A stretch of 64,000 nt of DNA from Nitrospirota bacterium (GCA_033854515.1 JAWOJY010000003.1:2254-66253); one strand, 5' to 3'. Counted from the first letter of the stretch, positions 6,982 to 46,593 are shown. Numbers and translations: made by a program. The notes: a model not told the origin generated them from the letters alone.

Positions 6982-7059
6982 GTCGTCGTAACTTTTCCGG
7001 TCGACGCAGCTTGCAGATGCATGCTCAAACGGATCACTGTTCAACATCCATGGAGAACA

Positions 7060-7710: not shown

Positions 7711-7751
7711 AAGCAGGCAGTCACGACGCGCCGACAAGGAGTATAAAGATA

Positions 7752-8540: not shown

Positions 8541-8697
8541 GCAATTCCGAATCTTGAGAAATCCCGGCTAAGCGAAGCTAAAGTCTGATGAAGCAGCTGA
8601 TAAGATGTTGACAACCGGGCTCTGATTATTTAATATTTCATCAATTGTTGTGATCGGATCTGTAGTACTTTATGCGGTATCGTTGTTTTTCAAGCTT

Positions 8698-9708
8698 ATG
8701 ACGAACCCTGTTGAACTAAAACGTGCAATCCGCAAATTTATTGTGCCTGCTCTCACCCTTCTTGCAGGGATCTCCATCGGATTCATGCTCAGAGATCTGA
8801 CCCCGGGAAAATCAAAACACGAATATTTCGAGATCAGGCAGGGTGGTTGGAAGTATATAAATCCCCTGTTGGAATGCGAGCAGGCTCGAAATACGATGGA
8901 AAACAATGAGCTCAAACCTTTTAGAGGTAATGTCGAAAAATTCATAAAAAATGATTTAAACAAAAAATGGGGTGACGACATCTCTGTATACTTTCGAGAA
9001 CTCAATAACGGGCTTTCATTCAGTATAGGAAGAACCGAACAGTTTTATCCTGCAAGCTTGCTCAAGGTCCCCCTGATGATCTCTGTTCTGAGACAAGCAG
9101 ACACTGACCCCAAGATCCTGACGAAAAAGATCGTTTACAACAATCCCGACTTTACATCAGCACAAAATACCGATGTGGCTCAAAAATTGGAGTTTGGTAA
9201 GTCCTATACAGTTGAGGATTTGCTGAAGAGAACGATTGAGTTTTCTGATAATGTTTCTTTTCTGCTTCTCGAAGGAGCTGTGGACCCTGTTTACCTCAAA
9301 GCGGTCTATGACGATCTGGGTATTCCGGACCCTTATTATCTGAATGACCAGAGCGGGTACGTGCTGTCGACGGAACAGTATTCATCTTTTTTCCGCATTC
9401 TTTTCAATGCCTCATACCTGAGTAAGGAAAAGTCCGAAAAAGCTTTGGAGCTTCTGTCAAAAACTGATTACACTAAAGGGTTGGTTGCGGGAGTGCCTCT
9501 CAATATTGCGGTCGCGCATAAGTTTGGGTTGCGGAAAATAAACGGAATCAAACAATTGCATGATTGCGGGATTGTTTATTATCCGAATCATCCCTACCTC
9601 TTGTGCGTGATGACCTCAGGTCCCACTCCCGAATATCTTGACAGTACCATCGCGGATATTTCCCGCTTTATATACAAAGAAATCGATCATCAGCACGGTA
9701 TTTATTGA
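8698..9708 (+). CDS. Membrane-anchored serine hydrolase of the class A beta-lactamase-like fold (paralog of 62573..63622)
   Basis: N-terminal TM helix; FYPASLLKVPLMI contains the S-x-x-K active-site motif; overall PenP-like layout. Start chosen by analogy with the paralog; the ORF could begin at GTG 8650. Confidence 0.6.
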   Translation: MTNPVELKRAIRKFIVPALTLLAGISIGFMLRDLTPGKSKHEYFEIRQGGWKYINPLLECEQARNTMENNELKPFRGNVEKFIKNDLNKKWGDDISVYFRELNNGLSFSIGRTEQFYPASLLKVPLMISVLRQADTDPKILTKKIVYNNPDFTSAQNTDVAQKLEFGKSYTVEDLLKRTIEFSDNVSFLLLEGAVDPVYLKAVYDDLGIPDPYYLNDQSGYVLSTEQYSSFFRILFNASYLSKEKSEKALELLSKTDYTKGLVAGVPLNIAVAHKFGLRKINGIKQLHDCGIVYYPNHPYLLCVMTSGPTPEYLDSTIADISRFIYKEIDHQHGIY

Positions 9709-9822
9709 CACAAAGGAACCGTGCATAAGGGACTATGGAATGTCCTCTATTCCCTCTTGTGCGTATCAAGCTCTCCATGATAGATACGACATCCCAAAGC
9801 AATAATTTGTCCTGTTGAAATC

Positions 9823-10173
9823 ATGATCACCCTCCCCTCGCCCCTGGGAAAATCCCTCCCTCGGGAAAAGGGAGGCCACGCAGGATTTATCGAGATCATA
9901 ATGCCCGACAAGCCTGTTGAATTTCCCATAAACGGCATTCTTGACCTCCACACCTTCCATCCGGGAGACGTGAAAGACCTCGTGCCCGATTATCTGGAGG
10001 CCTGCCGCGAGCGCGGCATCCTGCAGGTGCGCATTATCCACGGCAAGGGGAGCGGCACCCTGCGGCAGACAGTCCGTTCCATTCTTGAAAAACTGCCCTA
10101 TGTCGATTCTTATCGTACCGCGGGAGAAGATGAGGGAGGGTGGGGAGCAACAATCGTTATGTTGCGGGAATAA
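9823..10173 (+). CDS. Smr domain protein (MutS2 C-terminal-like small nuclease domain)
   Basis: [19 protein letters not shown]...[14 protein letters not shown] is a Smr-domain signature (LDLHG..., HGKG). The start is uncertain and the ATG at 9901 would give about 90 aa. Confidence 0.55.
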
Positions 10174-10229
10174 CCGGAGCCGGGCCGAAAGCGTCGGCGT
10201 GCACGGTTTCTCGTGTTGCGGGAACGTTC

Positions 10230-11687
10230 TTACGTAGTACTTCTAAGCGGGATCTTGAGCCGCTGCCCGACACGCAGGTAATGACCGCCCCGGAGTCTGT
10301 TTGCCTCGATGATCCGCCGGGCGCTTGTCCGGTACCTGAGTGCGATGAGCGAGAGGGTTTCGCCCCGCCGGACGCGATGGACCACGTATTCCACCTTGGG
10401 TGGAATCCACTTCGGCATCTGATCAAGGGCCGCGGTCAGCATTTCCGCCCTACCTACCGGAACCTTGAGGGCATAGGGCGTGTCGGGAGTGGCGCTGCGC
10501 CGCAACTCGGGATTGAGCGTCGTGAGGTCTTCAAGATCGACCCCCAGTTTATCAGCAATGGATTTTAAATGAATCGGCCGATCGACGGTGACGGTCTCGC
10601 AGGACAGGGGTTTGTCGGGATCTTCCAGCGTGAAGCCGTACTGGGCCGGGTCCTTGATTATGGCGAGGACCGCGAGAAATCTGGGAAAATACCGTGCAGT
10701 CTCCCTCGGAAGCCGCTCGTAGAGGTCCCAGAAGTTGTCGAGATAATCCACTTTCTGTTCTCTGATGACGCGGGCGACCGAACCCTCCCCGCAGTTGTAA
10801 GCAGCAAGCACCGTGGCCCAGTCGCCGAAGATATCATGCAGTTCCTTGAGGTAGTCGATTGCCGCTTCCGTGGACTTCGCCGGGTCGAGACGCTCATCGA
10901 TCCACGTGTTCCGCTTGAGCCCGTACTTGTACCCGGTCGATGGGATGAACTGCCAGAGTCCGAGGGCGCGCGAGCGGGACAAGGCCCTGACTTTGAACCC
11001 GCTTTCGATCAGGGGCAGCCACGAAAGCTCCTCGGGAAGGCCGGCCTCTTTCAATGCCTTCACGATATCTGCGCGGTATCTGCCCGATCGCTTGTAGGCT
11101 TCCATAAAGAAATCGCGCTCGATCGTTTGAAAGGACGCAATCTCGCGCTGCACGTGATCGTTCATGGTCATGGGGATTTCCTTGTGATTCCCCTTCACGG
11201 CAACGTGACGGGACGCGTAGATCTCCATAATCCGCTTCGAGATCAGGTACCTCAGGTCTTCTTTCTGCTGGGCCAGCTTCGGGTTCGTGTCGGGCACCTT
11301 CAATATCAAGGCATATGCCTCGTCCAAAGCATCGATGGCATCGTCCATGTCGCCGTCAGCCCAGTCATCTTGGGACGTTTCGGTGAGTTCAAGGGCCGTG
11401 TCGAGGCGGCTCTGATCATCGTCGCCGTTTTCCTTCTTTTTTGCGTCCTGGTTGCTTTTATTCTCGACCGGAGGCTGCGCAGCTTCGCCGTTCTCCGTTA
11501 CCATGGGCGTCGGTGACGTCGCGACGGGTTCGAGAGGTGCTTCGACCGCGGGCGCAGCAATTGCCCTTGGAGAAGGCCCTGTTACGATGGAGTCCTGATC
11601 GCTGATGAGATGGAGATTTTTGGGATGGCTGCAGCCGAAAAAGATGAGAAAGGGAAAAAGTATTACATATGTAAGGAGGGTTTTCAT
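10230..11687 (-). CDS. mltD: Membrane-bound lytic murein transglycosylase D-like lipoprotein (SLT domain plus C-terminal LysM)
   Basis: Signal peptide with Cys (LIFFGCS). The SLT catalytic region reads EAGLPEELSWLPLIESGF...GLWQFIPSTG. The C-terminal LysM is YVVHRVRRGETLSLIALRY...GQRLKIP. Confidence 0.8.
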   Translation of the reverse strand: MKTLLTYVILFPFLIFFGCSHPKNLHLISDQDSIVTGPSPRAIAAPAVEAPLEPVATSPTPMVTENGEAAQPPVENKSNQDAKKKENGDDDQSRLDTALELTETSQDDWADGDMDDAIDALDEAYALILKVPDTNPKLAQQKEDLRYLISKRIMEIYASRHVAVKGNHKEIPMTMNDHVQREIASFQTIERDFFMEAYKRSGRYRADIVKALKEAGLPEELSWLPLIESGFKVRALSRSRALGLWQFIPSTGYKYGLKRNTWIDERLDPAKSTEAAIDYLKELHDIFGDWATVLAAYNCGEGSVARVIREQKVDYLDNFWDLYERLPRETARYFPRFLAVLAIIKDPAQYGFTLEDPDKPLSCETVTVDRPIHLKSIADKLGVDLEDLTTLNPELRRSATPDTPYALKVPVGRAEMLTAALDQMPKWIPPKVEYVVHRVRRGETLSLIALRYRTSARRIIEANRLRGGHYLRVGQRLKIPLRSTT

Positions 11688-31972: not shown

Positions 31973-32830
31973 TCACCTCACCACCAGGATGGGGCAGGAA
32001 GCATTGGTGATTACGCTTCCCGTCGTGCTCCCCATGATGGCCTTGCTCACTCCCTTCCATCCGTGCGTACCCATGACGATAAGATCGTTTTCGAGCCTCT
32101 CGGCGGCCTTCACGATCTCGTCCCCTTCATGCCCTTCCCGGATTTCGGTTCGAACGGAAACACCATGCTCCGAGGCGATTGCTTTTGCCTCGCCGACGAC
32201 TTTCTCGGCTTCCCGATAAAGGCTCTTTTTGATGGAATCGGACCTGAAGAACTCCACCATCTCCTCATAGCGGGGGATTACGTAAAGGACCGTGACCGCC
32301 GCACCGTCCATCTTCGACAGCTCGCAGGCGCGGAGCAACGCTTTTTTGCTGAGTTCCGACTTGTCGAAGGGCAGCAACACGGACGTGTAATTGCCGGTAC
32401 ATTCGCTGCACGGCCGTTTCACCACCAGCACGTCACAGGGAGCATTGAGCACCACCTGCGACGTCACGCTTCCCATCAAGAGCCTCTTCAGGCCTTTTCT
32501 TCCGTAGGTGCCGAGGGCGATTAGGTCTGCGTTCTTCCCCTGGGCCGTTTCGACGATCACGTCGGGCGGCTCTCCTTCGCAGACCATGGACTCGGACTCA
32601 ACGCCTGTTTCCGATGAAATCTCCTGTTTTGCCTGCAGGCAGATCTTCGTACCTATCTCGAACCGTTTCTCCATCTGCGAGGGCAGGATGGCAAATTCCT
32701 CTTTATCGAAATACACGGCATGGACCATAAAAACCTTGCCCCCGTGTTTCTTTACCCAAAGTGACGATTCTTTCAGCGCAGCCTTGCTCGACTCCGATTC
32801 ATCATACCCCACGACGATTGAATTGTACAT
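31973..32830 (-). CDS. Universal stress protein with tandem Usp domains
   Basis: Two Usp repeats (IVVGYDESESS...LIALGTYGRKGLKRLLMGSVTSQVV and VLLPFDKSE...LIVMGTHGWKGVSKAIMGSTTGSVI). Confidence 0.85.
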   Translation of the reverse strand: MYNSIVVGYDESESSKAALKESSLWVKKHGGKVFMVHAVYFDKEEFAILPSQMEKRFEIGTKICLQAKQEISSETGVESESMVCEGEPPDVIVETAQGKNADLIALGTYGRKGLKRLLMGSVTSQVVLNAPCDVLVVKRPCSECTGNYTSVLLPFDKSELSKKALLRACELSKMDGAAVTVLYVIPRYEEMVEFFRSDSIKKSLYREAEKVVGEAKAIASEHGVSVRTEIREGHEGDEIVKAAERLENDLIVMGTHGWKGVSKAIMGSTTGSVITNASCPILVVR

Positions 32831-33642
32831 TAATGCGCTCCCCCGCCTTTTCTGAATATCAGTCCAACGCCGAAACCGGCCGACAGCGCGGCAAGTACGG
32901 ACAGCGCACCGTAGAGAACACCGTTGTTCCTGGCCATGCCGGCAAGGGATTTGACCATCCCGACCTGCTCAACATTCACTTTGGTTTCCGCCTGTTCCAC
33001 CACTTTCTTGTTCTTCACCGCATAAACCGTAACGAGATAATCGCCGGGTGTCGCCTGATACGGCCAGTCGGTCATGATGTAATATTCCTGCCTGCCGTTG
33101 TCGAGAGGCGTAGTGGATATCTTGTTCGAGGACATCGCATAGAGGCTCGACGCTTCTTTGAATTTCAGGAATTCATTGAACCATGCGGTCTTCTCTTCGT
33201 CGCCGGTGACCGGAGTAACTTCCACGTGATTTTTGAGCGACGAATAACCGATTGTGTATTTATCCATTTCTTCAGGGCTCAGGATATCTTCGAGCTTTCC
33301 CGTGCTGTAGACGCTGTAAAAGTTGGGCGCATGTTCGAACTTCAAATCGCCCACGTTCATCCACAGCAGCCCTCCCACCTTTCCTTTTTTCTTGAGCACC
33401 TGATGGCCTTCGGGCGAGGTTATCTTGATCACCAGATCCGTACCGGCGTCGGCCACGCCCTTTACGCTCACGGTGCTGCCGTGGTAAAAGAAGTCGATCT
33501 GGATGTGGTCATGATTCGCCTTGGCCGTCAACTCAGCAGCGGCGGTTCTATCAAATGTAAAATGTAAAACGAAAAATGCAAAAGCAAGGAATACCGTTAT
33601 TTCGAATTTTGGACTTTGAATTTTGAATTTCTTCATTATCAA
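32830..33642 (-). CDS. Secreted periplasmic protein with a C-terminal TM anchor, co-transcribed with the TSUP permease
   Basis: Signal peptide (VFLAFAFFVLHFTFDRTAAA), a soluble domain of about 220 aa and a C-terminal helix VLYGALSVLAALSAGFGVGLIF. Overlaps the upstream gene by 4 nt and abuts the downstream one. Confidence 0.5.
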   Translation of the reverse strand: MIMKKFKIQSPKFEITVFLAFAFFVLHFTFDRTAAAELTAKANHDHIQIDFFYHGSTVSVKGVADAGTDLVIKITSPEGHQVLKKKGKVGGLLWMNVGDLKFEHAPNFYSVYSTGKLEDILSPEEMDKYTIGYSSLKNHVEVTPVTGDEEKTAWFNEFLKFKEASSLYAMSSNKISTTPLDNGRQEYYIMTDWPYQATPGDYLVTVYAVKNKKVVEQAETKVNVEQVGMVKSLAGMARNNGVLYGALSVLAALSAGFGVGLIFRKGGGAH

Positions 33643-34610
33643 TGCCCTCCTGCCTGAGAGATGAGTAATGACGGACTTAAGGTGAGTTCAAAAATTATCT
33701 TGATCGTGACCACGAGAACGATGAGCGCAAGAAGTATCTTGAGCTGTTCGCCCTTCAGCTTCCTGCCGAAGACAGCGCCAACCTGCGCCCCGATTGTGGA
33801 GCCCAGGAGCAGGAGCACGGCAAGGATGAAATCCACGCTGTGGTTCGTATAGGCCTGGAGGAACGTGACCTCGATGCAGGTGAACAGTATCTGGAACAGG
33901 CTCGTGCCTACCACGACGTGCATCGGCATACGCAGGATATAGACCATCACCGGCACCATGAGGAACCCGCCGCCCACACCCATGATCGCAGCAAGGATGC
34001 CGACAAAGCCGCCGAGGATAACAGGCACGAGAGCAGAATGCGTGACGCCGGATTTTTCGAAATGGGTCTGGAGCGGCAAGGACTTCAGGAATTTGGCCAT
34101 ACCCGATTCTTTCTGCTGTTTGGACTCGGCAACGGACGGCTTTTTCTTCATGCTCATGATGCTCTCGACGAGCATATAGGAGCCGACGATGCCGAGCATG
34201 AGCACATAGGTCATTTTGATGACAAAGTCGGCGTTCCCCATGGCCTTGAGCACCTTGATGCCCTGGACGCCGACAAGGCCGCCGAGGAACCCGCCGAGAA
34301 GAAGGTAGAGCCCCATTTTGAAGTCAACGTTGCCCACCTTCCAGTGCGCATACGTGCCGGACGTCGATGCCGCAACGATCTGATTGGAGTCGGTGGCCGC
34401 GGCCACGGTCGACGGAATGCCGAACATGATCAGGAGCGGCGTCATCAGAAACCCTCCGCCTACGCCGAAAAGACCGGAAAGCAGCCCTACGGCGAGCCCG
34501 AGCCCCACGGGAATCAGGATGTTGATACTCGTTAACGCAACAGGCAAGTAAAGATACATTGCACCCACTCCTTTATCCGATATGATTATCTGTACAGGGT
34601 CCATGGCCAT
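33639..34610 (-). CDS. TauE/SafE (TSUP) family anion/sulfite-type permease
   Basis: Two internal repeats carrying the GxGGG signature (GLFGVGGGFLMTPLL and IMGVGGGFLMVPVMV); about 8 TM helices. Confidence 0.8.
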   Translation of the reverse strand: MAMDPVQIIISDKGVGAMYLYLPVALTSINILIPVGLGLAVGLLSGLFGVGGGFLMTPLLIMFGIPSTVAAATDSNQIVAASTSGTYAHWKVGNVDFKMGLYLLLGGFLGGLVGVQGIKVLKAMGNADFVIKMTYVLMLGIVGSYMLVESIMSMKKKPSVAESKQQKESGMAKFLKSLPLQTHFEKSGVTHSALVPVILGGFVGILAAIMGVGGGFLMVPVMVYILRMPMHVVVGTSLFQILFTCIEVTFLQAYTNHSVDFILAVLLLLGSTIGAQVGAVFGRKLKGEQLKILLALIVLVVTIKIIFELTLSPSLLISQAGGH

Positions 34611-34668: not shown

Positions 34669-35166
34669 TCAGGCCACGCAGCAGGCCTGTTTTGTCATGG
34701 TAACGATAGGCCGCGACGACGTCCTGACCAAGCGGTTGAGATCCTTGGACGATATATTGCCCTTCTCGGTCACAGCGGGGCTCAACAGAACCTTGTCGAT
34801 TCCCGAATTCTGCTTGAGAAAGGTCCTGATGCCCGAGACCGCGTCAAGTCCCGTGTTATGGACATGAACGTGAATGCCTTCCTTATGACACTTTTCTACC
34901 AGCTCGGCGAGTTTCTGATCGAGGCGCTTGCGTGCGTCGGGAGAATCCCCGGCCGCAACCTGTCGAGCCGTATCATGGTCATCTTCCTCTGCGAAACTCA
35001 CGGCGGTCATCAGATTTTCGATCTTGTCCATCAGGGTGTTTTTCTTGTGAACGAGCAGAAGCGCGATATCTTCATACATCGCCTTTGCAAGTTCAATGGC
35101 ATATGAAAGCCCATCTTCGAGATTCTCATCGCGGTATGTGACAAATAAAAGCTGTCTCTTTCCCAT
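34669..35166 (-). CDS. Divergent Usp-like protein carrying an inserted SFAEE-motif segment
   Basis: Strong RBS AAGGAGG. Usp-like beta-alpha pattern (LLFVTYRDENLEDGLSYAIELAKAMYEDIALLLV ... KVLLSPA). The insertion LMDKIENLMTAVSFAEEDDHDTARQ matches a motif in two genes of the second Usp operon. It is the first gene after the sigma-54 promoter. Confidence 0.5.
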   Translation of the reverse strand: MGKRQLLFVTYRDENLEDGLSYAIELAKAMYEDIALLLVHKKNTLMDKIENLMTAVSFAEEDDHDTARQVAAGDSPDARKRLDQKLAELVEKCHKEGIHVHVHNTGLDAVSGIRTFLKQNSGIDKVLLSPAVTEKGNISSKDLNRLVRTSSRPIVTMTKQACCVA

Positions 35167-35224: not shown

Positions 35225-35241
35225 TTGCAATGAGAATGCCA
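35225..35241 (-). promoter_or_regulatory. Sigma-54 (RpoN) -24/-12 promoter: TGGCAT-TCTCA-TTGCAA
   Basis: On the minus strand the sequence reads TGGCATTCTCATTGCAA, with the conserved GG and GC spaced exactly as in the TGGCAC-N5-TTGCW consensus. It lies about 50 nt upstream of the 35166 start, in an AT-rich intergenic region next to a sigma-54 activator gene. Confidence 0.55.
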
Positions 35242-36268: not shown

Positions 36269-37609
36269 CTAACTTTCTTCAGCCTCTTTCAGTATGCGCC
36301 ACAGGCTGGTTCTCGAAATGCCGAGCACTTCGGCCGTCTTGGATCTGTTGCCGCCGTACATATCGAGCACTTTTTCCGCGTATTCCTTGTTCAATTCATC
36401 GATGGTCTTGATCCTGTCCGGCTCGAGCGTATCGATCTGGAACATCTTGATGCTCTGGGGCAGGCTCGCGGGGGTAATGAGAGAATCCCGTTCGAGGATG
36501 ATCGCCCGCTCGATGATGTTCTCAAGCTCCCGCACGTTTCCCGGGAAGCTGTACGTCATGAAGATGTCCATTGCGTCTTTGGAGAACCCGCTTATCTTTT
36601 TGCGGGACTTTGGGAGGTGTTTTTCAAGGAAAAACCTGCACAGCGGAGAAATGTCCTCCCTGCGCTCCCGGAGCGGCGGGGTGAATATCTCCATGATGTT
36701 GAGCCGGTAGTAGAGGTCCTCCCTGAACCTCCCTTCCGAGATGAGCGCCCGCACGTTCTGGTTCGTCGCCGCAATAAACCGTACATCAACTTTGATGGGC
36801 CGTGTGCCGCCGACTCTGTAGAATTCGCCTTCCTCGATCACCTTGAGGAGCTTCGCCTGGAGGTTCGGAGACATCTCGGCGATCTCATCAAGGAACAGAG
36901 TGCCCGTGTCGGCGATCTCTACGAGACCCTGTTTGGTCCTGTGAGCTCCGGTGAACGCCCCTTTCTCGTGGCCGAACAGCTCGCTGGCGAGAAGTTCCTC
37001 GGTCAGCGTCGCGCAGTTTATGGAGAGGAATGGCATGTCTTGGCGCCTGCTCGTGAAATGAATGATCTTGGCCAGGAGACTCTTTCCCACGCCGGTCTCA
37101 CCCGTGAGAAGAACGTTGCAATCGGAGTCCTTGATCCCCTCGATGATGCTGAGGATGTTCTTCATGCTCTCGCTTTTCGCGATGATCGATGCCTTCTTAT
37201 CCATTCCGAGGTATGTTTTAAGGGCGATGTTCTCCTTTCTCAGGGTCTTCTGTTCCCGGATCTTGTTCACCTTCAGGATGAGTTCGTCCAGATCGTAGGG
37301 CTTCGTAATGTATTCGTATGCCCCTTTTTTCATTGCATCCACCGCCGACCCGATGCTCCCGAATCCGGTCACGATGATGACCTCCGTATCGAGCTGTTTT
37401 TCCTTGATTGTGTCGAGGAGTTCGATGCCGGTTAGACCCGGCATTTTTATATCGGCGATGAGCACGTCATAGGCGCGGGTTTCCATGTTCTCGAGCGCTT
37501 CCGTTCCGTTCGTTACGCCGGTCACGTCATACCCTTCCTTGGCAAGAGTATTCATGAGGTGCTTCAGGGTTATTTCTTCATCTTCAGCTACAAGTATCTT
37601 AAAAGCCAT
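36269..37609 (-). CDS. Sigma-54-dependent transcriptional activator, NtrC family (REC, AAA+ sigma-54 interaction domain, Fis-type HTH)
   Basis: REC domain (ILVAEDEE, DVLIADIKMPG); Walker A GETGVGKSLLA; GAFTGA motif (EKGAFTGA); the ESELFGHEKGAF region; C-terminal HTH (RSKTAEVLGISRTSLWRILK). Confidence 0.9.
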   Translation of the reverse strand: MAFKILVAEDEEITLKHLMNTLAKEGYDVTGVTNGTEALENMETRAYDVLIADIKMPGLTGIELLDTIKEKQLDTEVIIVTGFGSIGSAVDAMKKGAYEYITKPYDLDELILKVNKIREQKTLRKENIALKTYLGMDKKASIIAKSESMKNILSIIEGIKDSDCNVLLTGETGVGKSLLAKIIHFTSRRQDMPFLSINCATLTEELLASELFGHEKGAFTGAHRTKQGLVEIADTGTLFLDEIAEMSPNLQAKLLKVIEEGEFYRVGGTRPIKVDVRFIAATNQNVRALISEGRFREDLYYRLNIMEIFTPPLRERREDISPLCRFFLEKHLPKSRKKISGFSKDAMDIFMTYSFPGNVRELENIIERAIILERDSLITPASLPQSIKMFQIDTLEPDRIKTIDELNKEYAEKVLDMYGGNRSKTAEVLGISRTSLWRILKEAEES

Positions 37610-37710
37610 GGTTTTCCTTTCCTGGTTATGTTATATCCAGTGCGTTCATCCTCGAGTAAATTCCGTGTGTCTCCGGAAAGCAGACGGGGACCGGGGCGTG
37701 TATACGCAAG

Positions 37711-39300
37711 TCAATCGGAAAAAACAATAATAAACGTCGTTCCCCTGCCTTCTTCGCTTTCAACCAGTATTCCCGCATTGTGTTTTTGTATGATATTAAA
37801 CACGACGGCCAGTCCCAGACCGTTGCCTTTGTCCTTTGTGGTGAAAAAGGGCTCGAAAATCTTATCGAGAGAGTCTTTCGGGATTCCGCTGCCCGAATCG
37901 GACACCTTCACGGTCACTGATCCGTTCGACTTTCTGACGGATGTCCGGATGTCCCCTTCACCATGCATGGCTTCGACCGCGTTCGTAAACAGGTTGATGA
38001 AAACCTGCTCCAACTGCGCGGGATCGGCCTGTACGTAAACACGATGCGGATCGGCGTCGATAGAGAAACGGATGCCGTTCAGGACTTGAGGAGACACGGA
38101 GAGGCGTTTATAAGAGCTGCCGATCAACCCGATCAGTTCCACGTCCCGGAGCTGCGGCTTCTTGCCCCGCGCGAACTCAAGGAGATCTCCCACAATCTTT
38201 TTCACTCTGAGCGTTTCTCCTTCGATATCGTCCACGGCTTCTCTCGCTGCGGGCGGAAGGGCACCGCCGGCCTCTTTTGAAAGCACCTGAGCCGACAGAT
38301 AAATGTTATTGAGGGGGTTATTGAGTTCATGTGCCACCCCCGACGCAAGAGTGCCGATGGCGGCAAGCTTCTTACTCCGCATCAGCTCTTTGTTTTTCCG
38401 GTCGAGTTCTTCGTCTCTTCGTGCGAGTTGTCCCTGCAGGGTATTGAACTCGTCTATAAGCACCCCCACTTCATCGCGGACGTTGTCTTTTGACGGCGGA
38501 TCGTACAGATGCATGTACCATCCCGTGCCGGCCTTTTCCACTATCTTTATCAGGAGCATCAATCGTCGCACGACGTTGCCGCTGATAAAGAACAGCGTCC
38601 CTATGCCGACGATAAAGAACAGCGGGAAAAATATGATAATCGCCGTCTGCGAGACGCGGGTCACGGTCTTCGCATGTTCACGCGCTTCGATATCGAGGTC
38701 ATTGGCTATAACGACGATGTCCTCGCCGTTTTTTCTCAACGTGCCGACTTCCGCATCGAGTTTTCTGAGCCCCGTGACCAGATTGTGGTCCGGCGGCAGC
38801 ATGAACACCGTTTCGAGAATATCCGCCGCGTCCGACGGGCGATGCAAAAAATCCGATTCCATGAACAGGGAAAATTCGGCAGAGTTACGATATGAGGGTT
38901 TTATACGATCAAATGCAGTTGTCAGGCTCTCTCCAGACGCTTCTACTTCATCAAACCTCTGCTCGTACTTCTTCAACCGGTCCCGCAGGGCCAGTTCATC
39001 CTTCCAGTCGATGTGGGGGTTCGCTGCCAGGATATCCTGCATTTCCTTGGTACAGAGATGTACGGCCTTCGATTCTTCCGCGACCTGCTGGGGACTTTTG
39101 GCAAAGAAATAGTTGGTTTCATGCCGTCTCAGATCGAGGGCCTTCCTCATCACAAGGTCCGTTGTCTCCAGGTATCGTATCTCCCTCTTGATCTCCACAA
39201 AATTTATGTATTCGAATACCGTGAGGATGGCGATGATGGCGGCGCTGATGAGAAAACCGATGGTTATTTTCTTCTTAAGTGACACGGCTTTGGCAACCAC
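37711..39300 (-). CDS. Sensor histidine kinase (paralog 1 of a tandem pair)
   Basis: TM, sensor with RRHETNYFFA, TM, HAMP, H-box GVAHELNNPLNNI, HATPase boxes (NLFTNAVEA, DSGSGI, GNGLGLA); begins with GTG. Confidence 0.85.
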   Translation of the reverse strand: MVAKAVSLKKKITIGFLISAAIIAILTVFEYINFVEIKREIRYLETTDLVMRKALDLRRHETNYFFAKSPQQVAEESKAVHLCTKEMQDILAANPHIDWKDELALRDRLKKYEQRFDEVEASGESLTTAFDRIKPSYRNSAEFSLFMESDFLHRPSDAADILETVFMLPPDHNLVTGLRKLDAEVGTLRKNGEDIVVIANDLDIEAREHAKTVTRVSQTAIIIFFPLFFIVGIGTLFFISGNVVRRLMLLIKIVEKAGTGWYMHLYDPPSKDNVRDEVGVLIDEFNTLQGQLARRDEELDRKNKELMRSKKLAAIGTLASGVAHELNNPLNNIYLSAQVLSKEAGGALPPAAREAVDDIEGETLRVKKIVGDLLEFARGKKPQLRDVELIGLIGSSYKRLSVSPQVLNGIRFSIDADPHRVYVQADPAQLEQVFINLFTNAVEAMHGEGDIRTSVRKSNGSVTVKVSDSGSGIPKDSLDKIFEPFFTTKDKGNGLGLAVVFNIIQKHNAGILVESEEGRGTTFIIVFSD

Positions 39301-39448
39301 GGCATTACTTTACCATAATGGGTCCTCCTCATGCAACCCCAAAAGAAAAAGAACTTTTGAGCATGGTAAGAGCCGTGACCGTTGTAAAGAGGGCTTTTAT
39401 GGGCGGCCGGAGCCGGAAGAGATAAATGACCGCAAACCTCGGGTCGTT

Positions 39449-41086
39449 TCAGTTCTCCCCGGCGTCGTTAACGGACGTTCCGACGGCGCCGGAAACAACC
39501 CCTCCCGCCCCCGTCTGTTTCACCGGGAATATGATAATAAACGTTGTTCCCTTTTCCGGTTCGCTTTCAACCAGTATTTCAGCGTTATGCTTTTGCAGGA
39601 TATTGAACACGATTGCCAGCCCCAGCCCCGTGCCCCTGTCCTTCGTTGTAAAAAAAGGCTCGAAAATCTTGTCAAGGGAGTCCTTCGGGATGCCGCATCC
39701 TGAATCGGTTATTTTCATCGTTACTGATTCATCCGACTTTTTGATGGAGACCCGGAGACTGCCTTCATAGCGCATCGCTTCGACGGCATTCATAAAGAGA
39801 TTGATGAAAACCTGCTCCAACTGCGCGGGATCGGCCTGTACACACACGCGTTCGGGATAGGAGTCGACGGAAAAGCGTACCTTGTCCAGGGAGTGAGACA
39901 TTTTGAGATGCTTGAAGGAATGGTCGATCAGGCCTTGTAATTCCACGTCCTCCACCTGCGGTTTTCTGCCGCGCGCGAACTCGAGGAGGTCACCGACGAT
40001 CCTCTTCACCCGAAGCGTTTGGCCGACGATGTCGCCGAGGGCGTTTTTCACCGCAGGCTGAATATGTTCGTTCGCCTCTTTCAAAAGCACCTGGGCCGAC
40101 AGATAGATATTGTTGAGGGGGTTATTGAGTTCGTGCGCCACGCCCGACGCCAGCGTGCCGATTGCGGCCAGCTTCTTCGCTTGCATGAGTTCTCTGTTTT
40201 TCCGGTCGAGTTCTTCTTCTCTCCGGGCAAGCTGGTCCTCCATATCGTTAAATTTGTCGATCAGCAGTCCCACCTCGTCATGAGCGTTGCCTTCGGAAGA
40301 AGAAACGGAAATGTGCGGATAGTTTCCTTTGCCGGTCTTTTCGATTACCTTGATCAGGAGCATCAGTCTCTTGACGGCGCTGCCGCTGATGAAAAAAAGG
40401 GTCCCGATGCCGACGATGAAAAAAATGGGGAAGATCACAAGGATGGCCAGTTGGGAAATGCGGATAACCGTCTCCGTGTTTTCCCTTGCAACTTTGTCGA
40501 GTTCTTTGGAAATAATGAGGATATCTTCACCGTTTTTTCTGAGTGCGGCAATGTCGCCGTCGAGCCTCCTGAGCCCGAAGATTAGTGCGTGATTTGAGGG
40601 AAGCAGGAACCCCTTTTCGAGGACATCAGCCGCCTGAGACGGACGTTCGAGAAACGTCGACTCTATCATCGGGAAGAACTCGGCATGGCTCCGGTGCGCG
40701 GGTTTTATCCCTTCAAACGCCTTCGTCAGGCCGCGAACCGCGACTTCGATGGTGCTGAATCGTTGTTCATATTCGTTGATCCGGTCCCGCAAGGCGAGTT
40801 CATTCTTCCGGTCGATGTGCGGGTTTTTTGTCAGTATGTCCCTGAGCTGCCCCACGTAGTCATGTACCGCCTCTGATTCTTCCTTTGCCATCTGAGTACT
40901 GTAGAGGAAGTAATTCTTTTCGTGCCGCCGGAGTTGGAGGGACTTCCTCATAATCGTATCGGTCGTCTCAAGATACCGGGTTTCCTTTTTGATTTCTATG
41001 AAATTGACATATTCAAACGCCGTAAGCACGGCGATGATTGCGGCGCTTATCAAAAAACTGATTGCTATTTTTTTCTTGAGTGACAT
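39449..41086 (-). CDS. Sensor histidine kinase (paralog 2 of a tandem pair)
   Basis: Near-identical layout and many identical blocks relative to 37711..39300 (MSLKKKIAISFLISAAIIAVLTAFEYVNFIEIK..., GVAHELNNPLNNI, DSGCGI, GTGLGLA); start set at the ATG of MSLKKK. Confidence 0.85.
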   Translation of the reverse strand: MSLKKKIAISFLISAAIIAVLTAFEYVNFIEIKKETRYLETTDTIMRKSLQLRRHEKNYFLYSTQMAKEESEAVHDYVGQLRDILTKNPHIDRKNELALRDRINEYEQRFSTIEVAVRGLTKAFEGIKPAHRSHAEFFPMIESTFLERPSQAADVLEKGFLLPSNHALIFGLRRLDGDIAALRKNGEDILIISKELDKVARENTETVIRISQLAILVIFPIFFIVGIGTLFFISGSAVKRLMLLIKVIEKTGKGNYPHISVSSSEGNAHDEVGLLIDKFNDMEDQLARREEELDRKNRELMQAKKLAAIGTLASGVAHELNNPLNNIYLSAQVLLKEANEHIQPAVKNALGDIVGQTLRVKRIVGDLLEFARGRKPQVEDVELQGLIDHSFKHLKMSHSLDKVRFSVDSYPERVCVQADPAQLEQVFINLFMNAVEAMRYEGSLRVSIKKSDESVTMKITDSGCGIPKDSLDKIFEPFFTTKDRGTGLGLAIVFNILQKHNAEILVESEPEKGTTFIIIFPVKQTGAGGVVSGAVGTSVNDAGEN

Positions 41087-41213
41087 GGTTTTTTTGTTAC
41101 CGGTATGGTACTTTAACACAGAGACTTTCCCCGTGCAACACAAAAGAAAAAGGCCGAAGCAACGCATCGTCGGCGTCCCTGCTTCAGCCTGGCAAAATTC
41201 ACTGCGGCTGTTA

Positions 41214-42068
41214 TTACGACCTGACAATGAGCACGGGGCACCCGGCGTGTCCGATGACCTTTTCGGCCACGCTTCCCATGAGGAGCCTTCTCAAGCCGGT
41301 CCTTCCGTGGGACCCCATGACGATGATGTCCGCTTTTTTCCGCTGTGCGAGGTCGATGATCGCCTGGTACGCTTCTGCCTCGGCTATGAACGTCTCCGCC
41401 TTGATTCCTGCTTCTTCCGCCTGCTTCCGGATCCCCTCGACAAAGCTTTTCGCCTTTTTGACAAGGTCCTCCATGGCCTGCGGGGCCTCGGCGTAAAATT
41501 CTGACGGGACATCTACCACGCAGATGATAATGAGCCCGCCGTTGTATGATTCGGCGAGACTTATAGCCTTCGCGGCTGCAGTCATGCTGAATCGGGACCC
41601 ATCGGTCGCGATCAGGATTTTGTTCCATCCCACCGCTGTCCGAAGCGGCATGACGAGCACATCACGCTCGCTGTGGCCGATGACCCGCGCCGTGACGCTG
41701 CCGACCAGCGCCCGCTCGAAACCGGTCCGGCCTTTTCTGCCCATGATGATAAGATCGGCGTTTTCCGCAACGGCAAGGTCGACGATCCGCTCATGGGGAG
41801 GGCCTTCCTCACAGACGGTCTTGATAAGCGCGCCGTCCGCCTGGGCCATCTTCTGTGCTTCGGCAAGCGCGGCCTCGCAGGGCCTTCTCAGGGACTCCAG
41901 GATGTTTTTCGTGCCCACGAATTCCAGGTCACCCTCGAAGGGAGGAGCAACTGAAGTGACCGTTATCCAGCTCTTTTCATTGAGCGCGAGCTTGAAGGAT
42001 TCCCTCAATGCGTTCATGCTTGACTCCGAGCCGTCAACGGCCACCAGCAGTTTCCTATATCTTCCCAT
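41214..42068 (-). CDS. Universal stress protein with tandem Usp domains
   Basis: Two Usp repeats (KLLVAVDGSESS...LIIMGRKGRTGFERALVGSVTARVI and ILIATDGSRFS...IIVMGSHGRTGLRRLLMGSVAEKVI). Confidence 0.85.
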   Translation of the reverse strand: MGRYRKLLVAVDGSESSMNALRESFKLALNEKSWITVTSVAPPFEGDLEFVGTKNILESLRRPCEAALAEAQKMAQADGALIKTVCEEGPPHERIVDLAVAENADLIIMGRKGRTGFERALVGSVTARVIGHSERDVLVMPLRTAVGWNKILIATDGSRFSMTAAAKAISLAESYNGGLIIICVVDVPSEFYAEAPQAMEDLVKKAKSFVEGIRKQAEEAGIKAETFIAEAEAYQAIIDLAQRKKADIIVMGSHGRTGLRRLLMGSVAEKVIGHAGCPVLIVRS

Positions 42069-43146
42069 GCTCCAGCGCTCCCTCGGAGAGCCTGAGTTTT
42101 TCTTCCCTGCGCCCTTGCATCATGGCACGCAGCACGATGATGGCACCCAGCAGTAATGCGGCGATCATTATACCAAAGCTCGTGGTCTTGAGCAACCCGG
42201 CCGTGCCGTCGCCGAGCTTCTGGATGAGGCCGAGCTGGGACAGGTACACCGGGATCATGAGCCCGCGGCTGAAGAGCACGATGACCATGATCAGGCCCAT
42301 GACGACCTTGATCATGTACGGCTTGACGTAGGTGGTGCCGATGGCGCCGAGCTGAATGCCGAAGAGCGAGCCCGCGAGAATGATCAGGGCGAGCCGGATA
42401 TCGACGAGCCCGCTCATGGCGTACTTGAACGAGCCGCCGAGACCCATGACGAATGCGATCACAAGCTCAGTGGCCGAGGCCATGAGGCTGGGCGCGCCCA
42501 TGACGTAGATCATCGAAGGGACGCCGATGAAGCCGCCGACGGCGATCGTAGCCGCCAGCATGCCCGTCGCAAAACCGAGAGGAACGGTAAAGAGCACCGA
42601 AATGCGGGCGTTCAGGCTCTTGAAGTAGACCATCGTGCCCGGAATGTTGATTGACTGGACCCAGCGCGCCAGCTTGCCGGCCTTCTCTTCTTCGAGCACG
42701 TTGCCCGACTTGTAAGTCTTATAGGCGTCACGCAGCACAAAGCCGCCCACCAGCGCGAGGATCACGACAAAGGCCACGCTCACGTACAGGTTCGAACCTG
42801 CATCGCCGAAGGCTTTCTTGATGTTTTCCTGGATGTGGGCGCCGTAGAGCACCCCTGCTTCCGCCGAGATGCCGAGCACGATACCGAGTTTCACGTCGAC
42901 CTGGCCGTACTTGGCCCGTTTGATCGCCCCGACGAGCGCCTTGGGAAACTTGTGGCACATGTTGCTCGCGACCGCCACGAGCCCGGGGACCCCCAGGCTC
43001 ATCATGCCCGGCGTAAGCACGAAAGCCCCGCCCGATCCGATAAATCCGCTTACGAGACCCCCGACAAAGCCCACACCGAAAAGGTAGAGGACAGTGATGG
43101 TGTCGAGGTTGATGAAATTAGCCGCTGTTCCGATGACGTCGTGCAT
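42055..43146 (-). CDS. TauE/SafE (TSUP) family permease
   Basis: GxGGG-type signatures (GFIGSGGAFVLTPGMM and IAVGGFIGVPSMIYVMG); 8-10 TM helices. Confidence 0.8.
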   Translation of the reverse strand: MHDVIGTAANFINLDTITVLYLFGVGFVGGLVSGFIGSGGAFVLTPGMMSLGVPGLVAVASNMCHKFPKALVGAIKRAKYGQVDVKLGIVLGISAEAGVLYGAHIQENIKKAFGDAGSNLYVSVAFVVILALVGGFVLRDAYKTYKSGNVLEEEKAGKLARWVQSINIPGTMVYFKSLNARISVLFTVPLGFATGMLAATIAVGGFIGVPSMIYVMGAPSLMASATELVIAFVMGLGGSFKYAMSGLVDIRLALIILAGSLFGIQLGAIGTTYVKPYMIKVVMGLIMVIVLFSRGLMIPVYLSQLGLIQKLGDGTAGLLKTTSFGIMIAALLLGAIIVLRAMMQGRREEKLRLSEGALEHGKI

Positions 43147-43147
43147 G

Positions 43148-43402
43148 TTATTTTACCTCCTTCTTTTTTTTGGCCGCCTCGATACCCATGACCGTCCAGA
43201 AATGACCGGTGAATTGGCCATGTACAAACGAAAATACGAACGCCAGTGTTATGGGCAAAAAAGCATAGAGCCCGCCCCTGCCGAACGTGCCGTTCACCAT
43301 GTCCTGGTTGGACAGGAGCGCGGCGTACAGCGCCATGGAGACGACTCCCATGAACAGCATCTTGCCGACCGGTTTCTTTTTCGTGCTGCTGTGTGCCATC
43401 AC
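43148..43402 (-). CDS. Small 2-TM membrane protein encoded immediately upstream of the TSUP permease
   Basis: 84 aa; two hydrophobic helices; 1-nt gap to the permease gene. Confidence 0.5.
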   Translation of the reverse strand: MMAHSSTKKKPVGKMLFMGVVSMALYAALLSNQDMVNGTFGRGGLYAFLPITLAFVFSFVHGQFTGHFWTVMGIEAAKKKKEVK

Positions 43403-43456: not shown

Positions 43457-43948
43457 TCACGCGCGCATGCTGTCCGCAACCACCACGAGCGGGCACCTGA
43501 GGTCCTGCCACAGGTCGGAAAGCCTCCTGTCCCCGCTGTTGCAATCAACGTCGAGCCCTTCCGACGACTCGATGACGACGAAGAGTACGGAGCTCTTGGC
43601 ATTCGTGTAATCGATGATTTCCTGTTTCATGCAGCCGGTCCTGTGCGTCACCGCATACTCAATCCCCGCGGTCCTGAGTTCTGACAGGAAATCGCGGAGC
43701 AGCGGGTCCGAATCAGCGCCGGACGCGAGCTCCCGCGAAAGATACAGGATGTCAAGCCCCGCCCTGACCCGCATGCAGGTGTTCACGGCGTACTTCAACG
43801 TCCCGGCGTCCACCTGCCCGCGCCTCACGGCGAGCAGTACCCTTCGTTCCTGTTTCAGCAACTCTTCGGCCTGGCCGAACGCTCCTTCCTCGGCGAAGGA
43901 ACCCGCAGTCAGCGCCTTTTCAATTTTGTCGATCATTTTGTTGATCTT
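43457..43948 (-). CDS. Divergent Usp-like protein with an N-terminal SFAEEG motif
   Basis: Start at the ATG with GAGGT upstream. The N-terminus MVHKINKMIDKIEKALTAGSFAEEGAFGQAEELL carries the motif; a Usp-like C-terminal part follows (VLFVVIESSEGLD...LVVVAD). Confidence 0.5.
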   Translation of the reverse strand, partial: KINKMIDKIEKALTAGSFAEEGAFGQAEELLKQERRVLLAVRRGQVDAGTLKYAVNTCMRVRAGLDILYLSRELASGADSDPLLRDFLSELRTAGIEYAVTHRTGCMKQEIIDYTNAKSSVLFVVIESSEGLDVDCNSGDRRLSDLWQDLRCPLVVVADSMRA

Positions 43949-43998
43949 ATGTACCATTTTCCCTGCTACCTCGGGAGCGGCACAGGAAGCCTCCGCTC

Positions 43999-44175
43999 TT
44001 AGTCGGCCCTCAACACTTTCCTTTCCGACGGCCGCGTACGCTTGTGAGCGGACGGACGATCGGTCTTTCTCGACTGTATTTCTCTTATCAGCTGCCGCGC
44101 CGTCTCGAACTCGCCTTCTTCGGCGAATGCAACAGCAGCCATTTCCGTTTCGCGCCTTTTGATAAATTCTTTCAT
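43999..44175 (-). CDS. Small protein (58 aa) carrying the same AFAEEGEF motif
   Basis: Strong RBS AAGGGAAAGGAGGT 7 nt before the ATG; sequence MKEFIKRRETEMAAVAFAEEGEFETARQLIREIQ...; it is the first gene after the sigma-54-like promoter. Confidence 0.4.
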   Translation of the reverse strand: MKEFIKRRETEMAAVAFAEEGEFETARQLIREIQSRKTDRPSAHKRTRPSERKVLRAD

Positions 44176-44211: not shown

Positions 44212-44228
44212 TATCAAGTACCGTGCCA
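44212..44228 (-). promoter_or_regulatory. Sigma-54-like promoter candidate: TGGCAC-GGTAC-TTGATAA
   Basis: Perfect -24 element and correct spacing, but the -12 element reads TTGA rather than TTGC; about 25 nt upstream of the RBS of the small gene. Confidence 0.35.
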
Positions 44229-44568
44229 CAATGAAACAAACATATAAGTCATTGTATTCGCAGAATTAAAATTTTAAAATGAAGACCAACCTCAAGAAAA
44301 TATTGTTTCAAAAAGCAATAGTTCAATTTTAAATGCAACCATATTATTGAAAAAAAGAATAATTCTAATCGATACAAAAACGAACCTATATTGCAAAATG
44401 CAACAATTTTGTTTTTCTGCTCTTAAAACTAGACGCTTGCCGGAAAAAAGCGGCCCTGTTGTGGACGGCATTTTTTTGTGGTATAGTGAATTTTGTTGGA
44501 GAAAAAAGCTTTCTCTCGTCGAGTGCACATCACGGCTTCAATCGGGAAACTGCGAGGATGGGCGGACC

Positions 44569-46593
44569 GTGAAATTTTTCAAAAAATCGGACGACAGCCA
44601 GCAGGAAACAATCATCGAAGAGCTGCGCCAGAAGATCGCCGCGGCCGCTATGCCGCCGTCCGTCGAGAAGATTGCGGAGCAGGAACTTGAAATTCTGACA
44701 AAGATAAACTCTTCGTCTGCCGAATACACGATCGGGCTCACCTATATCGACTATCTCGTCTGCCTTCCGTGGAACAGAAAGACCGAGGACAATCTCGACA
44801 TCGCCCGCGCTGAAAGAATACTGAACGAGGACCATTACGGTCTGAGGAGGACCAAGGAGCGCGTTCTGGAGCACCTTGCGGTCAAAGTGCTGAATAGGGA
44901 CAGGAAGCCGCAGATTCTGGTCGTCGACGACGAAGAGATCGCGAGGAAAAACCTGGCCCATATCCTGACAAAGGAAACCTATGCCGTAACGACCGCTTCG
45001 AACGGCAAAGAAGCGCTCAGGGCGCTCGATGCCTTCGAGTTCGACGTCGTGGTCACCGATCTCAGAATGGGCTCCATCGACGGGATGGAACTTCTCGAAA
45101 AGATCACCGTGAAATATCCGGCCGCGAAAGTGATCATCGTAACCGGGTATGCCACGATCCCGTCGGCTATAGAGGCCACGAAAAAAGGGGCCTTCTCGTA
45201 TATCGCAAAACCGTTCCAGCTCGAAGAGGTCCGCGCAGCGGTCAAACAGGCGCTGGAAAAGAAAGCTCGCGTAAAGAGCACCAAGGGTTCCGTCCTCTGC
45301 TTTGTGGGCCCTCCGGGCACGGGGAAGACGTCGCTCGGCAGGTCTATTGCCGGAGCCCTGGGACGAAAATTCACAAGGATATCGCTGGGCGGTATGAAAG
45401 ACGAGGCCGAGATACGCGGCCACCGGCGGACTTACGTCGGCGCGAAACCCGGCAGGATCATCGAGGAAATCCGCAGAGTGGAATCCGCCAACCCGGTCAT
45501 CATGCTCGACGAGCTGGATAAGATCGGGCACGACTTCAAGGGAGACCCCGCCTCGGCGCTCCTCGAAGTGCTGGATCCGGAACAGAACCACAGTTTTGTC
45601 GACCACTATCTCGACGTGCCCTTCGACCTGTCGAGCGTCATGTTCATCCTCACGGCGAACATTATGGAACACATCCCCTCCCCGCTCAGGGACCGCATGG
45701 AACTCATCGAATTTTCCGGATATACCCATGAAGAGAAGGCCCGCATCGCCGAACTGTTCGTCATCCCGCGCCAGATACGGGAAAAGGGGCTGACTGAGCG
45801 CCCGCCCGTCTTCACGCGCGAGGCAGTGGACAGGATCATTCGCGAGTACACCCGCGAGGCTGGCATCCGGAACCTCGAAAGAAAGATTGCGTCGGTCTGC
45901 AGAAAAGTAGCCAAAGAACTGGTCGACACAAAAGGAAATCTAGGCGCCGTGACCATAACGCCGGATGCCGTAGAGCGCTACCTCGGCCGGAGAAAGTATT
46001 ACTTCGAAGTGGTCGAAGAAAAGGACCGAATCGGCGTCACGACCGGCCTGGTCTGGACCGAGGCGGGCGGGGACATCATTTTCGTCGAAGCAGCCATGAT
46101 GAGGGGAAAAAAAGAGCTCCTGTTGACAGGTTCGCTCGGGGACGTCATGAAGGAATCGGCGCAGGCCGCCCTGAGCTACGTGAGGAGCAACGCGGCTTCG
46201 CTCGGCATTCCTGAGGATTTTTTCGAGCGCTACGACATCCACATCCACGTGCCGTCAGGAGCGATCCAGAAGGACGGGCCCTCGGCCGGGCTCGCCATGG
46301 TCATCGCCCTTATATCCCTCCTTACAAAACGTCCGGCGAAACGGGACGCGGCCATGAGCGGTGAAATAACCCTCACCGGCAGGGTCCTCCCCGTGGGCGG
46401 GGTCAAGGAGAAAATCCTGGCCGCCCGGCGCGCCAACGTCAAGACCGTCATTCTTCCCGCCAAGAACCGGGTGGACGTTGAAGATTTAACCGACGAGGCT
46501 TCGAACGGCATCACCATCCGTCTGGTCGATACTGTAAACGAAGTGGCCGACCTGGTTGTCACGAGGGAAAAGGAATTACCGGGACAATCATAA
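44569..46593 (+). CDS. Lon-family ATP-dependent protease with a response-regulator receiver domain inserted before the AAA+ module and no canonical N-terminal LON substrate-binding domain
   Basis: A Lon pre-AAA helical segment ([21 protein letters not shown], which aligns with E. coli Lon DTDHYGLERVKDRILEYLAV) leads into a complete REC domain (ILVVDDEE...[15 protein letters not shown]...VIIVTGY...YIAKPF). Walker A (GPPGTGKTS), the Lon sensor region and the catalytic protease Ser (DGPSAG) and Lys (KEKILAA) follow. The low-GC 5' part of the long ORF looks non-coding, so the start was set at the in-frame GTG 44569 behind GAGGA; the ORF could start as early as 44347. Confidence 0.85.

Follow-up and report, generated by a model that had tools for sequence, protein, structure and literature searches.

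Helical hairpins are common as interaction modules, and those of the TPR and FimV proteins are helix-turn-helix units of about 30 residues that can stand in tandem; TPRs mediate protein-protein binding. Other described systems that invite comparison with the locus presented here are the transporter-regulating universal stress protein (USP) domains of TeaD (of the TeaABC TRAP transporter) and of KdpD, the single-domain receiver (REC) proteins of the CheY type, and the small two-component connectors PmrD, SafA and MzrA. We analysed a stretch of 64,000 nt of DNA from a Nitrospirota bacterium (GCA_033854515.1, JAWOJY010000003.1:2254-66253; hereafter the window), in which two operons for TSUP (TauE) permeases encode three proteins sharing an SFAEEG motif. 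Judged from their sequences, the three SFAEEG sites represent a single mobile protein module of ~32 residues, present in three copies. Copy 1 makes up residues 1-32 (44080..44175) of S58, a stand-alone protein of 58 amino acids (aa) encoded by an open reading frame (ORF) at 43999..44175; copy 2 corresponds to residues 5-36 (43850..43945) of the USP-like protein U166, and copy 3 to residues 42-73 (34948..35043) of the USP-like protein U165, all on the minus strand.

In a six-frame translation of the whole window, the regular expression [SA]FAEE[GD] matched exactly three times, at 44113-44130, 43883-43900 and 34981-34998, each time on the minus strand and within a long ORF. The chance level, estimated from 300 first-order Markov shuffles of the window, was 0.003 matches on average with a maximum of 1, and a chance or compositional similarity of the three copies was rejected on this basis (three observed, 0.003 expected). 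A 32-aa profile hidden Markov model (HMM) of the module pointed to the same three places, with E values of ~3e-17 for U165 (3.4e-17 for copy 3), 2e-15 to 2.8e-15 for S58 (2.8e-15 for copy 1) and 9e-14 to 1.4e-13 for U166 (1.4e-13 for copy 2), and found no fourth copy in the window, the next best match having E>4. Because segments from the S58, U166 and U165 families align gap-free over 32 residues (alignment A7), the similarity is that of a domain-sized module and not of a hexapeptide. The first-pass annotation of this DNA, in which the recurrent motif had been noticed and a profile search proposed, had read all three peptides correctly, and the search returned them as homologous copies, far above chance. 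Two details of that annotation need adjustment. The start of the U166 gene, placed at 43948, is codon 4 of a reading frame whose true ATG lies at 43957 (MVHKINK..., 166 aa), in agreement with the database gene calls of an identical protein, which are 166 aa long. The element D-K-I-E, described as preceding the motif, is present in two of the three copies, S58 having R-R-E-T-E there; what is conserved at this place is a Glu at position -8 from the Phe, found in 71% of the 255 non-redundant copies and situated in an amphipathic helix.

Drawn from 617 instances, of which 255 are non-redundant at 80%, the module consensus reads M-K-K-L-x-K-K-[LIF]-E-[DN]-x-M-x-A-[VA]-[AST]-F-A-E-[AE]-G-E-[FH]-[ED]-T-A-R-x-[IML]-[ML], that is, an amphipathic helix that ends in A-x-x-F-A-E and is connected by [AE]-G-E, a tight acidic turn, to another short helix, [FH]-[ED]-T-A-R-x-[IM]-[ML]. 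Counted from the Phe as position 0 (96% of the 255 copies), the most conserved residues are A-3 (99%), A+1 (99%), E+2 (99%), G+4 (83%), E+5 (80%), T+8 (72%) and A+9 (100%), while position +6 alternates between F, H, W and Y, with His in 31% of the copies and some copies reading AGEHEHA. The pattern [FY]-[AD]-E-x6-A is carried by 312 of the 314 retrieved proteins, and F-A-E is invariant in the alignments of both USP-like families as well as in that of S58, so that the conservation in orthologous loci, whose absence the first-pass annotation had named as a refutation, is observed.

The sequence of S58 consists of MKEFIKRRETEMAAVAFAEEGEFETARQLIRE followed by a basic tail, RKTDRPS..RP..RKVLRAD. 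The protein has 74 homologous clusters in metagenomes and metagenome-assembled genomes (MAGs). These relatives all share the stretch A-x-A-F-A-E-E-G-E-F-E-T-A without variation, and a number of Arg residues in the tail, RKTDRPS...RP..RK.LRAD, do not vary either. Comparison of 33 distinct orthologous S58 genes yielded 3316, 2044 and 9301 differences at the first, second and third codon positions, respectively; since the differences fall mainly at third positions, S58 is under protein-level selection. It is thus a free-standing protein heading its operon, as had been proposed, and the very strong ribosome-binding site ascribed to its gene is present in the form of GGAGG, 8 nt before the ATG. We also noticed an inverted repeat, GAGCGG-N12-CCGCTC (43975-43998, minus strand), within the 41 nt that separate the S58 stop codon from the U166 start; the related loci L001 and L002 show no obvious conservation of it.

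In U166 (166 aa; 43457..43957, minus strand) the module is N-terminal and precedes a USP-like alpha/beta domain lacking the ATP motif, and U165 (165 aa; 34669..35166, minus strand), the product of the first gene of TSUP operon 1, is likewise USP-like. Their families comprise 203 (U166) and 690 (U165) clusters in metagenomes and MAGs. The placement of the module differs between the two, being an N-terminal extension in U166 and an insert between strand 2 and helix 2 in U165, and the insertion of some U165 relatives (P0261, P0292, P0293, P0305 and P0307) holds two tandem copies. Both proteins are predicted by AlphaFold2 (AF2) to adopt the USP-type alpha/beta (HUP) fold, and in Foldseek comparisons of the models with the PDB the top matches (the first 9 for U165, the first 25 for U166) were all universal stress proteins, with E values from 3e-5 upward. 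TeaD and the USP domain of KdpD are among these structural neighbours. No match to Pfam Usp (PF00582) at E<=0.1 was found for U166 or U165; a precomputed PF00582 match exists in only few homologues, and the scores of multi-copy relatives, 16.6-20.4 bits, lie below the cut-off of 24. The ATP motif G-x2-G-x9-G-[ST] occurs in 0 of 120 U166-family and 0 of 120 U165-family proteins; the two canonical tandem Usps encoded in the same operons each have it in both domains. Membership of U165 and U166 in the canonical ATP-binding class (UspFG/MJ0577 type) was rejected on this count (0 of 240). The description of the two carriers as degenerate Usp folds therefore holds, given that their models match solved USPs and that the ATP motif is missing throughout both families. 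Like TeaD, U165 and U166 share the USP alpha/beta fold and are encoded in a transporter operon; unlike the TeaD- and KdpD-type regulators, they lack the ATP motif and stay below the Pfam Usp threshold, and known USPs are without the extra hairpin module that they carry.

For all three copies of the module, AF2 predicts a pair of helices with the A-E-[AE]-G turn between them. The figures for S58 and U166 come from a model in which the window's S58 and U166 sequences were concatenated and folded with the U166-family alignment; the long helix that spans the junction in it (residues 52-81) is an artefact produced by joining the two sequences. S58 is modelled with helices at residues 2-19 and 23-37 (predicted local distance difference test, pLDDT, ~87) and a disordered tail. 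The core of U166 is of the USP type with pLDDT >90, while its module has only 56-58 (monomer model); in U165 the USP-type alpha/beta fold (predicted template modelling score 0.71) carries module helices at residues 45-60 and 64-71 with pLDDT 60-70. The module is thus modelled at pLDDT ~87 in the free S58 versus 56-70 when attached to a USP core, and these lower values suggest that the hairpin is not packed on its own USP domain in the predicted monomer.

Among catalogued families the nearest likeness is to TPRs. On the module, all Pfam-A and NCBIfam models stay below their cut-offs, and no TPR profile matched S58, U166 or U165 at E<=0.1; the only matches that fall on it, all sub-threshold, are to TPR_4, TPR_14, TPR_6, PPR, FimV_Cterm, PTS EIIA-Lac and PA3496_fam. 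The FimV/HubP model TIGR03504 (cut-off 30.65 bits) is not reached by S58 (12.9) or by the best relative, P0316 (23.8), nor is NF046101 (PA3496 family putative envelope integrity protein; cut-off 22), whose match is confined to residues 55-86 of U165 (14.2 bits, E 0.045). Aligned with hhalign, the module places AEEGEFETARQ on YKQGDYDEAIE of the consensus TPR. Its residues A-3, F0, A+9 and [ML]+13 have the spacing of TPR positions 8, 11, 20 and 24, as in the initial two thirds of the repeat, so that they would correspond to G8, Y11, A20 and F24, and the turn G-[DE]-[YF]-[DE]-x-A resembles the GDYDEA of the TPR consensus. The differences from TPRs are that positions 27 and 32 (A27 and P32) have no conserved counterpart in the module, and that its acidic F-A-E-[AE]-G-E core is almost invariant. 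Contiguous arrays of the TPR type were not found either; the proteins of the window have one copy each and the relatives one to four, usually one to three, with variable linkers of ~5-60 residues in place of a solenoid with a 34-residue period. A profile search of 177,635 PDB sequences revealed no relative of the module (best E 0.65), and literature searches found no mention of FAEAGE, FAEEGE or AFAEAG in a relevant sense and nothing useful on TauE with Usp and sigma-54, or on PA3496. Going by these comparisons, the module is TPR-like in design, not a demonstrated member of the TPR family, and absent from the family libraries searched.

Searched against 1.84 billion representative proteins, the 32-column module profile matched 1236 clusters at E<=1e-3 (126 at the stricter E<=1e-10), and in many of the 1236 there were two to four matched stretches. 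The best 150 matches include 116 small proteins with one to three copies and 32 proteins in which one to four copies precede a USP-like domain. The module occurs in four settings: alone with a basic tail, before or inside USP-like domains without an ATP motif, as two to four tandem copies, and at the C-terminus of REC domains. In the last of these, a protein of ~152 aa, the module directly follows helix 5 of a single receiver domain (...KKKLEDTMVAAAFAEEGEFGTARQI...); MAGs of Nitrospirota and Desulfobacterota supplied 15 examples, to which those of loci L090 and L091 are added, and Pfam covers only their REC part. These relatives resemble single-domain response regulators in that the REC domain has no other output, and S58-type proteins resemble connectors such as PmrD, SafA and MzrA in being very small and co-encoded with kinases and regulators; the module proteins have no sequence relationship to any of the named connectors, and the window itself is without a REC-module protein. 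The tails of the small proteins with one to three copies are mostly of two kinds, either basic (RP...LRA) or F-L-x-x-V-G-L-x-G-V-R-x-x-Y-G. The latter belongs to a second motif, F-[LF]-x-x-V-G-L-x-G-V-R-[VLM]-x-Y-G-x-V, that ends many small proteins with two or three module copies (P0334, P0329, P0369, P0431 and others; L069 4996-5385, L070 5090-5443, L076 4587-4877), is sometimes duplicated, has a related form, [LI]-P-G-[VI]-[KR]-[VI]-W-[YCWL]-G-[TS], and matches no Pfam family. In P0077, a single 243-aa gene call on a 1162-nt JGI contig, an S58-like and a U166-like part are joined via LRAD-W-SAVLSY; this could be a genuine fusion, or else a TGA read-through or a sequencing difference, the window having a stop codon at that place. 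Segments resembling the module core were also seen in CBS-domain proteins encoded beside transporters (L088 6371-6931, minus strand, SVSVAFAEAGAQDLDE; L069 8642-9211, plus strand, EVSIAFAQADLPELDE), which may be degenerate copies or a coincidence (HMM match weak, E 0.026). In databases, module proteins are named 'hypothetical protein' or bear spurious labels, and one REC-module protein is labelled 'DNA-binding NtrC family response regulator' though it has no DNA-binding domain.

On the minus strand, operon 2 has the gene order S58, U166, TM84, TauE, tandem Usp, two histidine kinases and, last, a sigma-54-dependent response regulator. TM84 (43148..43402), a membrane protein of 84 aa between the module genes and TauE, has no Pfam or NCBIfam family match; its position, always immediately upstream of the operon-2-type TauE, is kept in ~60 related loci, and it is possibly an accessory subunit of the TSUP permease. 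The permease itself (42055..43146; Pfam TauE, 1.5e-35) is followed by a canonical tandem Usp (41214..42068; Pfam Usp, 1.6e-65) with ATP motifs at residues 110 and 252, and then, as assigned from Pfam domains, by the kinases (39449-41227 and 37711-39300) and the response regulator (36269-37609) that ends the operon. This terminal arrangement of two kinases and a sigma-54 regulator (36269..41227) is conserved in related loci. The two tandem kinases (37711-41227; 592 and 529 aa) are paralogous and similar throughout, and stand before a single sigma-54 response regulator. In related loci a single kinase is usual at this place, with a second kinase/regulator pair across the protease gene described below. 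Operon 1 has the order U165, TauE, Alph_Pro_TM, tandem Usp, the genes after U165 (31973..34610, minus strand) being assigned by Pfam and NCBIfam matches as TauE (33639-34610), an Alph_Pro_TM/TIGR02186 protein (32830-33642) and a tandem Usp (31973-32830); the same order recurs in L050, L077 and L084.

Both operons are preceded on the minus strand by an element resembling a sigma-54-type -24/-12 promoter, TGGCACggtacTTGAT at 44213..44228 upstream of S58 and TGGCATtctcaTTGCA at 35226..35241 upstream of U165. The element before S58 is found in the same place in orthologous loci (L001, TGGCACgaaggTTGTA; L002, TGGCACgccctTTGTA). Further upstream of it we noticed a conserved near-palindromic sequence, GTTGCATTTTrCAA, and a second TTGCAT element (44391-44403 and ~44330-44345 in the window, in the region between S58 and the protease gene; 7747-7765 in L001 and 7738-7756 in L002), where the sigma-54 activator, whose gene closes the operon, could plausibly bind. 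Divergently from S58, on the plus strand, a Lon protease gene (44347..46593) specifies a protein with a REC domain inserted before the AAA+ part (REC-Lon; Pfam Response_reg at residues 190-300, AAA, Lon_lid and Lon_C). In L003 the gene was called as 674 aa, and in L004 as 707 aa in a call that runs to the edge of the contig; a true start further in than 44347 is therefore probable.

The comparison of genomic context was based on 80 loci from species-representative genomes, almost all of them MAGs of Nitrospirota/Thermodesulfovibrionia, with some Desulfobacterota and Myxococcota. A TauE gene is present in 73 of 91 module-bearing loci. Among the 49 loci of at least 9 kb, TauE is found in 47, two or more module-bearing genes in 41, a sigma-54 activator in 42, and REC-Lon, divergent next to S58, in 25. 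Three arrangements dominate: REC-Lon on the opposite strand followed by S58, U166, TM84, TauE and Usp (with kinase and sigma-54 regulator); a variant with kinase, regulator, U165-like, S58-like, TM84, TauE, Usp; and that of operon 1. The co-occurrence with TSUP/Usp operons, which the first-pass annotation had proposed to check, is very strong for TauE, but the module is not restricted to such operons and also occurs in some with a gene for a DASS (Na_sulph_symp/CitMHS families) permease. The loci to which more distant module proteins led keep to the theme in varied form. L090 has a two-copy small protein, REC proteins (one with the module), a CBS protein and a DASS permease instead of TauE, and L088 a kinase, a sigma-54 regulator and a three-copy USP-like protein adjoining a DASS-type permease gene, with TauE ~3 kb away; L091 combines a sigma-54 activator, a three-copy small protein, two REC-module proteins, a kinase, TauE and Usp. 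The REC-module genes of L060, L066 and L072 adjoin a TSUP gene and the gene of an AF_1016-like membrane protein; in REC-module loci this protein of ~140 aa (weak Pfam AF_1016), different from TM84, follows the TSUP gene. Further layouts were seen in L045, where two tandem S58 paralogues precede a U166-like gene (5971-6749), and in L077, where four module-bearing genes over two adjacent TSUP operons, along with a two-copy small protein, mirror the two-operon layout of the window (643-10547).

The homology of the copies, their conservation, the predicted helical hairpin, the four architectures and the genomic association are supported directly. From these we infer binding, the identity of the partners and a regulatory outcome, and consider it about evenly balanced whether the module hairpins pair between proteins and so build a small complex that links two-component signalling and USP-like proteins to the permease or its expression. 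The hairpin would be a protein-protein interaction element, and the hairpins of co-encoded proteins would pack together like neighbouring repeats in the tandem-copy proteins; in the window, the partners would be S58 and U166. Such pairing would give a small regulatory complex tying the transporter or its expression to the signalling or stress state, and whether the hairpin is accessible would, in the REC fusions, depend on phosphorylation. The setting is that of operons under sigma-54 and two-component control, headed by module genes, for TSUP (TauE) anion permeases and occasionally DASS permeases in anaerobic Nitrospirota and Desulfobacterota. An interaction hairpin is suggested by the fact that several module-bearing genes are usually co-encoded (41 of the 49 long loci), that the same hairpins occur in cis, in tandem arrays and in the S58-U166 fusion P0077 (Rosetta-stone logic), that the module is the sole attachment on a receiver domain, which needs an output, and that it is undocked from its own domain in the monomer models. 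The regulatory context, as read from the conserved sigma-54 promoter-like elements and the presence of an enhancer-binding protein gene in 42 of 49 and of TauE in 47 of 49 long loci, supports this reading, as do the presence of the transporter-regulating USP domains of TeaD and KdpD among the structural neighbours and the TPR-like register of the module. A partner-binding or regulatory role, as the first-pass annotation had suggested, thus stays the likeliest, though for a domain of ~32 aa in 1236 clusters rather than for a short peptide specific to these operons. Doubtful, in our estimate, is the further-reaching idea of an unrecognised, partner-switching-like regulatory system for TSUP/DASS permeases in anaerobes, in which the hairpin would be the sole phosphorylation-gated output of single-domain response regulators and would recruit small S58-type adaptors of one to three hairpins and ATP-blind USP-like proteins by hairpin exchange, switching the transporter, its sigma-54 regulator or the Lon protease on or off.

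Several observations weigh against hairpin pairing. Operon 1 of the window and L088 each have one module-bearing gene only, so that hetero-pairing within an operon is not universal. S58 is nearly invariant, which leaves no variation for a covariation analysis with its partners. The loci were largely found with S58-derived patterns and are biased to Nitrospirota, and the context fractions, including the 41 of 49 just cited, are indicative only. The likeness to TPRs is statistically insignificant (hhalign probability 1.1% against the consensus CTPR3), and multi-copy relatives peak at 21.2 bits for TPR_4 (cut-off 27) and 20.5 for TPR_14 (cut-off 23.5). Finally, the acidic turn A-E-[AE]-G-E is conserved more strongly than simple helix packing needs, which could mean a specific ligand or a common external partner. 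A ligand is at the centre of one alternative, by which F-A-E-[AE]-G-E-[FH]-[ED] would be a sensor site for a cation or the transported solute. The conservation of E+2, E+5 and the Gly (80-99%), the frequent His at +6, the AGEHEHA copies and the association of the module with ion and anion transporters fit this idea, but position +6 alternates like the aromatic packing position of TPR repeats, the spacing is that of no known metal-binding motif and a single two-helix hairpin offers few ligands, and we regard a sensor site as improbable. We put at a similarly low level the possibility that the module is an ordinary divergent TPR-type repeat, a helical spacer or stabiliser without specific role conserved in one lineage; the hairpin prediction and the register of the sub-threshold TPR, PPR and FimV_Cterm matches agree with it, yet eight positions are near-invariant across four architectures and two phyla, the free 58-aa protein is under strong purifying selection and the genomic association is tight and specific, which is not how a spacer would be maintained.

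We rank as the main rival, though still as rather unlikely, a role of the module or of the S58 basic tail as a recognition tag or adaptor for REC-Lon, by which module-bearing regulators would be subject to phosphorylation-gated proteolysis. In its favour are the constant divergent arrangement of REC-Lon and S58 in the window and in 25 of the 49 long loci, the insertion of a REC domain before the AAA+ part in a protease with no Lon N-terminal substrate-binding domain family among its Pfam matches (residues 1-189 not examined further), and the strong conservation of a tail that is predicted to be disordered. REC-Lon is absent, however, from the variant loci with U165-like and S58-like genes and from the Desulfobacterota loci L069, L070, L076, L088, L090 and L091, and because these loci still have module proteins, the module is not generally tied to the protease. 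That S58 is a regulatory leader peptide encoded by an upstream ORF, its likeness to the other copies being incidental or compositional, appears very improbable indeed: it is short, first in the operon, preceded by a very strong ribosome-binding site and Arg/Pro-rich at its conserved C-terminus, but it aligns gap-free over 32 residues with the USP-linked copies, chance is excluded by the shuffles, and the fusion P0077, the paralogues with two or three copies and the REC fusions carry the same module.

TSUP/TauE permeases occur very widely, and both what they transport and how they are regulated are poorly understood. Here, one module of ~30 residues links small proteins, ATP-blind USP-like domains, receiver domains and sigma-54/two-component systems, in conserved operons that many uncultured sulfur-cycling Nitrospirota and Desulfobacterota have in common. 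What is new is an uncatalogued domain family, broader than a peptide private to two operons; the principle is not new, helical hairpin interaction modules being common, and no surprising mechanism is demonstrated. The module provides a handle for a domain model, for mutagenesis targets and for interaction tests on the control of TSUP permeases and on REC proteins with a 30-residue output. A model of it would annotate more than 1000 'hypothetical' protein clusters, many of them proteins of less than 100 aa left unnamed by gene callers and databases.

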